From Holophagales bacterium (GTDB lineage Bacteria; Acidobacteriota; Thermoanaerobaculia; Multivoradales; JAGPDF01), in NCBI GenBank assembly GCA_016699405.1, contig CP064972.1:2696165-2760164 (forward strand): 64,000 bases of DNA, written 5' to 3'. The notes beneath the pieces were generated by a model. The model was given only the letters and a program-made list of their open reading frames with translations, was not told where the DNA came from and did no database searches. Every line of letters starts with the position of its first letter. The first letter of the stretch is position 1. Below, one piece after another: positions 23,201-26,200 of the stretch. Both the position numbers and the translations under genes were made by a program.

Positions 23201-26200
23201 GCGGAGGGAAGGATCTGGGTGGGGGCGGTCGCACCCGCCGCCGGCCGCAGCTCCGGCCGATGGTCGTAGACGAAGCCGATCGTCGTGGCGAGCGTCGGGA
23301 AGTCGCGCAGCTTCAGATTCGGGTCGCGCGCGATGCCGTACTTCTCGCGCACGGCGGCGAAGAGCTCGGCCTGCTTGACCGTGTCGACACCGAGGTCGGC
23401 CTCGAGGTCGAGGTCGAGCGCCAGCATCTCTCGCGGATACCCGGTCTTCTCGGCGACGAGAGCGAGCACGGTCGCCGTCACCTCGTCCTCGGCTTCCAGC
23501 TGGGGAACGGAGGAAGGCAAGACCAAGGATGTCTGGGTCGGTGACCCGGTGGCGACCGGCATCGCGGAGTCCGCCGTTCGGCTTCGCTCGCGACGCGCCG
23601 CGTCGTCATCCTGAGCGGTGCGGAGGATCTGGGCGGCGGCGGTCGCAGGCGCCGTCGGCCGCAGCTCCGGTCGCTTGTCGTAGACGAAGCCGATGGTCTT
23701 GGCGATGGTGGGGAAGTCGCGCAGCTTCAGATTGGGGTCGCGCTCGATCCCGTAGCGTTCCCGGATGGCGGCGAACACTTCGGCCTGCTTGACGGTGTCG
23801 ATGCCGAGGTCGGCCTCGAGATCGAGGTCGAGCGCCAGCATCTCTTTCGGATAGCCCGTCTTGTCCGCGATCAGTTCGAGCACCTGTTCGGTCACGGCGT
23901 CGGAGCTCGCAGAGGCGGCGGGAGCTGTGACAGCGACCGGCGTGGCGACGGAGGCCTGGCTCCCAGGCGGTACTGCGGCTGAAGTCGCGGCTAGTCCTTC
24001 CCCTGTCGGAACGTGGTGGACCTGCTTCGCGAGCGAGCTGCCCGCCGCCGCCGCGGGAGCGGGAGCGAGGCGAGCGAGGCCGCGGTCGACGACCCGCAGG
24101 GTGCGGTGCACGACCTCGATCGCCGGCTGCGGATCGCCGCTGGCGCGGGAGAGGAACCCCTCCCAGGTCGCGCGGTCGGCGATGCGGTAGGCGAAGCCGA
24201 GCTCGGCGGGGGTGCGATGCCGGCCGTCGCTCGTCGGGCTCCAGCGCAGCAGCGTCATGCTGATCTGCGAGCCGAAGCCGGCGCCGAGACGCAGCGCGTA
24301 GCGCACCGGGTAGCTGCCGCCGCGGGAGATGTTGAGCGCTCCCAGGTCGGGGTCGATCTCGCGGATGTTGGGCACCGGCGGGACGATGCCGGTCTCGAGC
24401 GACTTGATCGCCATCACGTCCTCGATCCCGACGGCCATCGGATGCCCGGTGTAGCCCTTGGTGTTGGCGATGACGATGCGGTTGGCCGACGAGCCGAAGA
24501 CGCGGCGCAGCGCGTCGATCTCGGCCTGGGCCGACCCGCCGCGTGCCGGGGTGTAGGTCTCGTGCGAGACGAAGACCATCTCCGTGGCGACGGCGTGACG
24601 GTCGATCCCCCAACGCGACTCGGCATCGGCGACGAGCTTCTCCATCATCTGCCCGATGTGCGAGACGTCGAGCCGGCTGCCGTGGAAGGCGCTGTTGGCG
24701 GTGACGGTCGACAGCACCTCGCAGATCGGCGCGAGGCCGCGCTCGCGCGCGGCACCGGCGCGTTCGAGCACCGCGGCGGCCGCGCCCATGCCGATGAGCA
24801 GGCCATGGCGGCGGCGGTCGAAGGGCAGCGCGGCGTCCTCGACGCGCTCGTCGGTGGCGGCGGCGCCGCTCGCCAGGAAGCCGGAGGCGAACCAGCCGAA
24901 GAGGTTGTCGCTGGTGATGTCGTCGGCGGCGATGACGATCACCCGGTCGCAGCGGCCGGCTCGGATCCAGTCCGAGGCGAGAGCGAATGCCTGGGTGGTG
25001 GTGGCGCAGGCGGAGTTGATCGCGGTGTTCGGGCCGCGGGCACCGATCGCCTCGGCGAACTGCGAGTGCCCCATCGACAGCACCTGGAAGAGGAATCGCC
25101 GGTCGAAGGTGAACGGCTCGGCGACGAGCTCGGCCTCGAGCGCGGCGATGCGGCGGTCGAGCTCGACGGCGGAGGTATCTCCGGCGGCGAGATTGCCGCG
25201 GAGCGCCCGCAGCTCCTCGAGGCGCTCGCGCCGCGAGCGTTCGCGGTGGAAGGCGTCCATCTTGCCCATCAACTGGTCGTAGCCGGGGAAGGCGGAGCCG
25301 AAGATCACGCCGGTGCCGTCGCGCAACTCCTCCGGCAGGCCCCAGCGGTCGGGCAGCAGCGTGCCGGTGGTGGTCGTCTTGTAGCGCATGACCAGCGGAA
25401 TGCCGGCGTCGCGCAGCGCGTCGATGCCGGCGCCGATGGCGAGCATCGTCGTGCGGTCGAAGGCGGCCGTGCGGTCGGCGGGGAATCCGAAGTCGCGCCC
25501 GAACTCGAGCTCCCCGGCGCGGGCGGCGAGCTTGATCACCTCGTCCGGGCTCTCGATCGTTTCGAAGCGTCCTCCCTCCTCGCTCTTGACCAGGCGGGTG
25601 ATCCGCTTCTCGACCATCGAACGGCGCAGCGCCGCCGGCACGGCACCGAGCATCTGCTCCCCGGCGAGCAGGCGGGCGAGGTTGCCGTCGTCGAAGACGC
25701 GCTCGGCGCCCGGCAGCCCGAGGGCGGCGCCGGTGACGACGACGGTGTCGTCCTTCACGGCGGACGCACCGGGTGCCGGAGCCGCGATGGGGGCAGCGGT
25801 CGCCGGGCTGCTCTCGCCCGAGGCGAGGGCGAGGCCCTTGGAAAGGAAGTCGACGAAGAGACGTCCGAGATCGGCGAAGCGATCGGACGGGACGGGCGGC
25901 AGGGTGCTCATGCGGGAGTCGCCTCCGGAGAGGTCCAGAGCGGCGGACGCCGTGGCGTGCGGCCGGGCGTCCGCTGCGGGAACCGGCGAGGACGCCGGGG
26001 ATGAAACGTCGGGTGGTGCCACGGCGACGGCGATCGGAGCGACCGCCTCGGGTCGCGCCGCGCCTCGCCCGGCGGCGTAGAGGCCGCAGAGCGCGAGGTT
26101 GAACGATCCGGCGTCGCCGAGCTTCGGGTGGTTGGTGGCGAGCGAAAGCACGTCGGGACGATCGCCGAGCACGTCTTCGACGAAGCCCTGGAGGGCGCGC

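Follow-up and report, generated by a model that had tools for sequence, protein, structure and literature searches.

A 64,000-nucleotide stretch of the genome of a Holophagales bacterium (assembly GCA_016699405.1, contig CP064972.1, positions 2,696,165 to 2,760,164), referred to here as the window, encodes on its minus strand a PfaA-like iterative type I polyketide synthase (PKS)/fatty acid synthase (FAS) of 2883 amino acids (20221..28872). Its domains, identified from the translation, Pfam and NCBIfam, are ordered KS1-AT-KS'-ACP x3-KR-DH (KS, ketosynthase; AT, acyltransferase; ACP, acyl carrier protein; KR, ketoreductase; DH, dehydratase). With moderate confidence, KS' is read as a catalytically competent second condensing domain of this megasynthase that is related to FabF and to the KSα subunits of type II PKSs rather than to KS1. 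KS' has the fold of a ketosynthase, its catalytic residues are intact and invariant, and both the domain architecture and the order of the surrounding genes are conserved among relatives. A preliminary description of the window had noticed the domain and assigned it non-canonical catalytic motifs.

KS' adopts the thiolase fold

The core of KS' (PKS residues 1035-1561; 24190..25770, minus strand) was delimited using Pfam, NCBIfam, PDB sequences, a structural model and an alignment. The surrounding region of 567 residues (24100-25800) matches the Pfam families PF00109 (4.6e-15) and PF02801 (2.5e-5), the NCBIfam FabF model TIGR03150 (E 8.4e-37, 126.8 bits, over model positions 138-400 only) and, by sequence, FabF crystal structures (E 6.5e-22). 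An AlphaFold2 model built on 34 homologs reached a pLDDT of 85 and a pTM of 0.88. When this model was searched with Foldseek, the best 26 PDB matches were all of the FabF/KASII type, bacterial or mitochondrial, with the best at E of about 1e-25 and TM-scores of 0.84-0.87 normalised to the target. At rank 27 came the actinorhodin KS (1TQY_A), and no chain length factor (CLF) chain was found among the top 50 PDB structural matches. KS' is a genuine thiolase-fold ketosynthase domain, far beyond chance. A second KS-type domain between the AT and the carrier domains is thus confirmed by Pfam, NCBIfam, FabF structures, AlphaFold2 and Foldseek, and the alternative that this region is a linker or docking domain is ruled out by the same Pfam, NCBIfam, PDB and fold results.

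Sequence identity between KS' and FabF is about 25-28%. Compared with FabF, KS' carries around 110 extra residues in three insertions as well as a tail of 64 amino acids. The insertions form two β-hairpins (model E68-81 and E136-154) and a long helical hairpin (H174-227) ahead of the active-site cysteine, the latter in the part of the sequence that we take to contribute the acyl pocket and dimer interface in FabF. The tail (23998..24189, minus strand), defined by alignment and model, folds into a helix and a small β-hairpin (H543-554 and E561-570) and has conserved columns at W549, G555 and RTLRV in the 34-homolog alignment. No counterpart of it was found in FabF, KS1 or KSα by alignment.

The condensing active site is complete

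The motifs of KS' were compared in an alignment with Escherichia coli FabF, KS1 of the same protein and Streptomyces KSα and CLF. All four peptides quoted in the preliminary description are encoded on the minus strand where it had placed them, within one open reading frame (ORF). The first of them, VVVTGAALGLPG (25708..25743), had been taken for a Rossmann-like segment preceding KS'. It aligns with FabF RVVVTGLGMLSPVG and KS1 IAIVGVGAVLPDA and forms strand E20-28 of the model; alignment and model therefore identify it as the first β-strand and loop of the KS fold itself.

The motif NSACATT (24997..25017) aligns with ATACTSG of FabF, so that Cys1289 (codon 25006-25008) corresponds to the FabF active-site residue Cys163, at a column where the Streptomyces CLF has Gln. 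The earlier statement that KS' is no classical CLF was correct in this respect. The two histidine motifs, which had been described as altered, turn out to be aligned with functional FabF positions. The peptide SHETYT is encoded at 24550-24567 on the minus strand, within the family signature motif SHETYTPARGGSA (24529..24567), which aligns with FabF AHGTSTPA---GD. The first catalytic histidine, His1437 (codon 24562-24564), matches FabF His303 and the H-x-T-x-T-P pattern is retained; the KS' signature reads HETYTPARGGS where FabF reads HGTSTPxGD. NTKGYTGHP (24439..24465) contains Lys1472 (24457-24459) and the second catalytic histidine, His1477 (24442-24444), equivalent to FabF Lys335 and His340 in STKSMTGH, making NTKGYTGH a near match to the type II FabF motif. 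GAGFGSQ (24265..24285) is the aligned counterpart of the FabF GFGFGGTN loop with the gatekeeper phenylalanine. All members of the FabF residue set, the Cys-His-His triad, Lys335 and the gatekeeper Phe, are therefore matched in KS', and only their neighbours differ.

Relationship to KS1 and to chain length factors

KS' was also considered as a recent duplicate of KS1, and this origin was rejected: BLASTP between the two gives E 0.38, compared with 4e-19 for KS' against FabF, 4e-24 against KSα and 5e-17 against CLF (32% over 275 aa of the Streptomyces protein), and they fall into separate clades. In a neighbour-joining tree calculated from 396 columns and covering KS', KS1, FabF, KSα and CLF, KS' and KS1 are each monophyletic with 100% bootstrap. 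KS' forms a long isolated clade whose affiliation with FabF, KSα or CLF has bootstraps of at most 50%. The phylogenetic placement suggested in the preliminary description thus sets KS' clearly apart from KS1 and provides no sister group.

Architectures of this kind were published under a different label. The Type R secondary lipid synthases defined by Shulse & Allen (2011, PLoS One 6:e20146; PMC3098273) are described as KS-MAT-CLF-ACP-KR (MAT, malonyl acyltransferase), which would make KS' a CLF-like partner that pairs with KS1, shapes the acyl tunnel and sets chain length, with no condensing activity of its own. Such a partner would agree with the similarity of KS' to the Streptomyces CLF, which is about as high as that to FabF, and with its position beside CLF in 50% of the neighbour-joining bootstraps. 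KS/CLF pairs are generally known from polyunsaturated fatty acid (PUFA) and type II systems. Like a CLF, KS' is a thiolase-fold KS homolog; CLFs, however, have lost the active-site cysteine, and KS' retains Cys1289, along with the lysine and the second histidine, in 80/80 loci. In addition, the AT lies between KS1 and KS', unlike in any known KS-CLF didomain. A further argument comes from three distant relatives, P0373, P0382 and P0383, which read ER-KS-[KS-like]-AT-KS'-ACPs (ER, enoyl reductase). Their extra KS-like domain, in which the two histidines are replaced by Phe/Tyr and Tyr and, in one case, the cysteine by Ser, is a separate degenerate CLF-like domain that adjoins KS1 alongside an intact KS'. 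This coexistence argues more strongly than anything else for a catalytic role of KS' itself; P0338 and P0356 even have three intact KS domains. Judged by its active-site residues, KS' is not a CLF, and a CLF-like role is considered improbable. The published label is probably wrong for KS', because the condensing active site is complete and invariant and coexists with a degenerate CLF-like domain in some relatives.

Conservation and distribution of the KS-AT-KS' family

Among the 34 homologs, which share 59-66% identity, the cysteine, both histidines, the lysine and all 13 residues of SHETYTPARGGSA are invariant. Because this motif is unchanged in all 34 sequences, the KS' active site is judged to be under strong purifying selection. 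In a broader set of genomic loci from at least six phyla, the cysteine, lysine and second histidine are present in every one of the 80 loci; the phenylalanine of GAGFGSQ is found in 79/80, a count to be read with the fact that this motif belonged to the search pattern. The same active-site signature is seen in cluster representatives of only 36-45% identity.

This distribution bears on the idea that KS' might be a scaffold relic (KS0), inactive and kept for scaffolding or dimerisation. Its low scores against all curated KS models and its large insertions would fit such a role. An active-site signature that does not vary between phyla, even at 36% identity, is, however, unexpected for a scaffold, and the truly degenerate KS-like domains of relatives have lost their histidines, so that a relic is regarded as highly improbable.

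The KS-AT-KS' architecture defines a large family, with at least 585 GTDB species representatives carrying it. A phmmer scan of 1.84 billion cluster representatives (50% identity) with KS' returned 684 with E<=1e-30, the best 150 matches scoring above 430 bits. In full-length matches, KS' is mostly located around 1000-2500 residues into proteins of 2000-4000 amino acids. Relatives of the locus include Korobacteraceae and Bryobacteraceae genomes, and the closest one, L001 from a member of the Thermoanaerobaculia, is 73-81% identical across the cassette of genes to which the PKS belongs. The KS-AT-KS' order, initially called atypical, is so in comparison with canonical PfaA proteins; overall, given the number of species representatives and clusters and its occurrence in Type R synthases, it is not. 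In sum, the preliminary description was half right: KS' is a specialised ketosynthase and no CLF, but its motifs are not disabled, no Rossmann fold precedes it and it is not rare.

Domain layout of the megasynthase

Since the window has a G+C content of about 72%, with abundant antisense artefacts in mechanical ORF lists, coding frames were picked by third-position GC (GC3) and motif searches. The long minus-strand ORF spans 20221-29055, with the likely start at an ATG at 28872 that yields the 2883-residue protein; its GC3 is 0.90 in this frame. Pfam places the KS at residues 7-420, the AT at 607-903, KS' at about 1035-1561, followed by three ACPs, the KR at 2281-2504 and the DH at 2590-2859. 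Against the NCBIfam PfaA model TIGR02813 the protein scores 941.2 bits, below the cutoff of 1010.1, with the match mainly covering KS1-AT.

KS1 (27430..28854) is a type I/PfaA-like ketosynthase with a C-terminal extension (PF00109 1.1e-71, PF02801 6.2e-44, PF16197). Its motifs DAACAS, HGTST and KSNIGH contain the catalytic residues Cys217, His351, Lys386 and His391, which are retained in 69-70 of 70 loci. The AT (26164..27054; PF00698 6.5e-49, FabD TIGR00128 7.7e-58) shows GHSLGE and HAFH motifs, and its malonyl specificity is presumed from the latter. An Ala/Pro-rich linker (25771..26067), delimited from the sequence and with no domain match in Pfam, connects AT and KS'. Downstream of the KS' tail, three tandem carrier domains (22873..23889; three Pfam PP-binding stretches) are followed by the catalytic subdomain of the KR (21361..22032; PF08659 1.1e-24), with VTGAAGSI and YAAAN located, and by a PKS-type DH (20296..21105; PF21089 and PF14765), whose HxxxGxxxxP motif is HRIDGTPVLPG. 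All of these are on the minus strand.

The absence of certain domains leads to two further possibilities for KS'. Pfam and a motif search of the PKS revealed a single, malonyl-type AT and no loading domain, which would leave room for KS' in priming or loading, as the preliminary description had proposed: either decarboxylation of malonyl-ACP to acetyl-ACP, as in KSQ domains, or condensation of a short or branched acyl-CoA starter in the first round only, with all later elongations left to KS1. Cys-His-His enzymes are generally known to decarboxylate malonyl groups intrinsically. Dedicated decarboxylating KS domains, however, have Gln or Ser in place of the cysteine, and because the residue lost in decarboxylating KSQ/CLF domains is invariant in KS', a decarboxylating or priming role is less likely than an ordinary condensing one. 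Starter-condensing enzymes are normally of the FabH type with a Cys-His-Asn triad, and the matches of KS' to FabH models are marginal (E 5e-4 to 2.5e-3). The helical insertion of KS', moreover, looks like an adaptation to long chains. Taken together, priming or loading appears unlikely.

Further, no thioesterase (TE), AGPAT or other release domain was detected by Pfam in the PKS or the cassette, which would fit a terminal reaction by KS' such as a head-to-head Claisen condensation of two chains, a cyclisation or an off-loading that frees the product. The family-specific changes near the first histidine and the extra tail could reflect a different second substrate. Nevertheless, the residues for malonyl decarboxylation (His, His, Lys, Thr-x-Thr and Phe) are all retained, enzymes of this kind are generally found in the FabH/thiolase branch or at the end of an assembly line, and no positive evidence for a terminal reaction was found; we give this explanation little credence.

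Threonine in the carrier domains

The three ACPs read EADLG[IV]DTVKQAE, with threonine codons at 23794-23796, 23380-23382 and 22981-22983 (minus strand). The threonine aligns with the phosphopantetheine-bearing serine of solved ACPs. Threonine occupies this site in 258/258 motif instances from 73 loci and in 314 of the 324 instances from 146 cluster representatives; a few members, P0300 and P0342, have serine at the same position. A literature search on threonine-linked phosphopantetheine found nothing relevant. A modification at this threonine, if it takes place, would be an unusual departure from a post-translational modification that ranks among the most conserved in lipid and polyketide biochemistry.

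Genes surrounding the megasynthase

The first gene of the cassette (28904..30589, minus strand) encodes an acyl-CoA dehydrogenase-family flavoprotein (ACAD) of 561 amino acids, recognised by Pfam Acyl-CoA_dh_N/M/1. Its core comprises residues of about 15-385 and is followed by a C-terminal extension of about 170 residues (28904-29420) in which no Pfam match was found. In most related loci, tblastn matches to ACAD nevertheless cover approximately the whole protein length. The extension may conceivably dock to the megasynthase. The best NCBIfam match of ACAD is the acryloyl-CoA reductase AcrC, at 240 bits and far below the cutoff. AcrC is an ACAD homolog that works reductively with electron-transfer flavoprotein (ETF). 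ACAD is located directly upstream of the PKS in 59/60 related loci. In 30-32 of the 60 loci, a 4Fe-4S/CCG oxidoreductase of about 710 aa, here called EtfD-like, together with EtfB and EtfA precedes the cassette (e.g. L054:1245-5141, L005:746-4711), with the ETF genes on the opposite strand in Thermoleophilia and Solirubrobacterales loci. These genes tie ACAD to an electron-transfer chain; no EtfD-like, EtfB or EtfA genes were found in the window. Five distant relatives (P0274, P0289, P0373, P0382 and P0383; L084:8001-19691, L085:6001-17733) have an N-terminal NMO/PfaD-like flavin mononucleotide (FMN) domain. Some of them additionally have a degenerate KS-like domain behind KS1, a 4'-phosphopantetheinyl transferase (PPTase) fused to the C-terminus, or both. 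No ACAD or acetyl/acyl-CoA carboxylase (ACC) neighbour was found beside such fused FMN-type ER relatives in two loci. It is plausible, though only partly borne out, that ACAD takes the place of a missing enoyl reductase.

Downstream of the PKS, a single-chain eukaryote-like ACC (15335..20251, minus strand) was identified by Pfam, with a biotin carboxyl carrier protein (BCCP) domain, a central region and a carboxyltransferase (CT). Its biotin carboxylase (BC) domain (about 19500-20251, minus strand) is truncated and degenerate, as in L001 (15559-16350): compared with intact homologs such as L006, neither copy has Biotin_carb_N, the GGGG loop or the E-x-N-x-R motif. The domain is partly decayed in L002 (Blastocatellia; 11863-13362) and intact in L006, L054 and the Nonomuraea locus L081. 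Given this decay, carboxybiotin would have to be formed by a different enzyme, unless the carboxylase of this lineage has another way of working. The last cassette gene (14571..15317, minus strand; start uncertain, GTG 15317 or 15392) encodes an Sfp-type PPTase (PF01648 5.3e-16). Its motifs GCDLEW and WSGKECALKAL were located, the Pfam ACPS match is moderate, and no relative was found among PDB sequences at E<=0.01. Nearly all family members have a PPTase of their own, adjacent or fused, and that of the window may be specialised for threonine-type carrier domains.

About 60 loci share the order ACAD-PKS-ACC, with one to seven ACPs per synthase; they belong to Acidobacteriota, Actinomycetota, Gemmatimonadota, Calditrichota and Verrucomicrobiota. 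A cultured actinomycete, Nonomuraea gerenzanensis, encodes ACAD-PKS(1 ACP)-ACC-PPTase at about 5.995-6.011 Mb of NZ_LT559118.1.

The flanking genes of the window are housekeeping genes: SRP54 (2995-4377, plus strand), pyruvate kinase, MgsA, a member of the isocitrate/isopropylmalate dehydrogenase family and a deoxyhypusine synthase-like gene. The SRP54 protein is 100% identical to proteins encoded on ENA and Logan metagenome contigs and shares 68-72% identity with those of its hits that are named as Thermoanaerobaculia, in keeping with an uncultured, Thermoanaerobaculia-like acidobacterium as the source of the window. A minus-strand ORF of 752 aa (4416-6674) appears coding-like (GC3 0.82) and has no Pfam family at E<=0.001. 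Conserved opposite-strand ORF families in the flanks, which have no Pfam matches, were rejected as antisense artefacts of high-GC DNA. An Rfam scan found no RNA family in the window.

Comparison with known systems

Type R synthases were reported from Koribacter versatilis, Solibacter usitatus, Elusimicrobium minutum and Roseiflexus spp. as one pfaA homolog of the order KS-MAT-CLF-ACP(3-6)-KR followed by a PPTase gene, with an uncharacterised product (PMC3098273). The window shares this domain order, with an additional C-terminal DH. In Koribacter, an ACC gene lies between the pfaA homolog and the PPTase (PMC3098273), as it does in the window, where all are on the same strand. The likeness to Type R is one of domain order and gene order. 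The intact Cys-His-His set, the ACAD and ETF genes, the C-terminal DH and the carrier threonine are not mentioned in the Type R paper, and a decayed BC domain belongs to the window's version. Because an incomplete FAS II was reported for Types M and S only and not for R (PMC3098273), Type R is probably accessory to another synthase of its host. For the same reason, the cassette as sole fatty acid synthase of the organism was considered and is not supported.

PUFA synthases (pfaABCDE and the myxobacterial and thraustochytrid systems) are likewise iterative KS-MAT-tandem ACP-KR-DH megasynthases with a dedicated PPTase, and likewise have more than one KS-type domain per set of carrier domains. 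PfaB, PfaC (KS-CLF-FabA-type DH2) and PfaD (FMN ER), however, are absent from the window cassette, where the second KS follows the AT in the same polypeptide and keeps its catalytic residues, and where an ACAD is present instead of the FMN-type ER. FabF/KAS II (TIGR03150; E. coli FabF, PDB 1KAS and 6OLT) is the best match of KS' by both sequence and structure, sharing the same Cys-His-Lys-His residues and an STK..TGH-type motif; KS', in contrast, is embedded in a megasynthase. Type II PKS KSα/CLF pairs such as that for actinorhodin (PDB 1TQY) show comparable similarity of KS' to either subunit. They differ in that CLF has Gln where KS' has Cys, and in that KS' has no adjacent partner KS, the AT intervening. 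The carboxylase is of the same eukaryote-like BC-BCCP-central-CT polypeptide kind as SACE_4237 of Saccharopolyspora erythraea, which makes malonyl-CoA for fatty acid synthesis (Livieri et al. 2019, PMC6491548). No PKS linkage is described for SACE_4237 (PMC6491548), and the window copy, in contrast, does not have a functional-looking BC domain.

Proposed role of KS'

The following scheme infers condensing activity of KS', a division of labour between KS1 and KS', the product and the direction in which ACAD would work. Malonyl-CoA would be supplied by the carboxylase and malonyl units loaded by the single AT onto the tandem carriers, themselves activated by the co-encoded PPTase. Either KS could then hold the growing acyl chain on its active-site cysteine and extend it by decarboxylative Claisen condensation. 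KR and DH would process the β-carbon to an enoyl intermediate. The α,β bond of the chain, still attached to its carrier, would be the target of the ACAD flavoprotein, for which roughly half of the related loci encode dedicated ETF/EtfD partners. The two ketosynthases would handle different rounds, distinguished by how long the chain is or by how far its β-carbon has been processed. The KS_A and KS_C domains of PUFA synthases, and FabB and FabF in type II FAS, divide rounds between them, and by this analogy KS1 and KS' probably split the elongation rounds as well. The product is probably a long-chain "secondary" lipid.

Several points weigh against KS' as a second condensing domain or against the scheme built around it. 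The split between KS1 and KS' is an analogy rather than a result. KS' is very divergent, scoring 126.8 bits where the curated cutoff of the FabF model TIGR03150 is 493.75 bits. Relative to FabF, SHETYTPARGGSA has a three-residue insertion after the first histidine, the neighbours of this histidine are Glu and Tyr, and the column of FabF Asp311 is occupied by Ala; the chemistry of KS' may thus be altered. SHETYTPAR was among the patterns used to collect loci, which biases the count of the first His, Glu and Tyr. Two relatives, P0299 and P0357, have neither an ER domain nor an ACAD neighbour and are instead adjacent to an AccA/AccD-type carboxyltransferase gene. Finally, literature searches found no biochemical or genetic data for any family member.

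Implications for the family

The window gene belongs to a family catalogued in 2011. Literature searches for a characterised member yielded only that survey, and no paper was found that assigns the family a product or tests what its second KS does. The KS' family is large, extending over at least 585 species genomes and at least six phyla, among them groups that dominate in soil, and it is also present in the cultured Nonomuraea gerenzanensis. The cassette is self-contained: it encodes a source of malonyl-CoA, an enzyme that activates the carriers and a flavoprotein as redox partner. This points to a lipid made in bulk and not to a trace metabolite. The threonine carrier sites and the ETF-linked flavoprotein make the family more interesting than KS' alone would.

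We tentatively hypothesize, as a joint reading of these features that we hold to be possible and no stronger than that, that KS' marks a distinct and very widespread class of iterative lipid megasynthases. Members may be built as KS-AT-KS'-ACP-KR-DH with their own PPTase and, variably, their own carboxylase and either a fused FMN reductase or an ACAD/ETF module. The elongation programme may be split among two or three active ketosynthases, and phosphopantetheine may be carried on threonine, needing a co-evolved PPTase and possibly a co-evolved KS'. In the subfamily of the window, the enoyl step may be carried out by an ETF-linked flavoprotein and not by a classical ER. If this is true, Acidobacteriota, Actinomycetota, Gemmatimonadota and other phyla would contain, as the product of these enzymes, an abundant lipid that has not yet been assigned.

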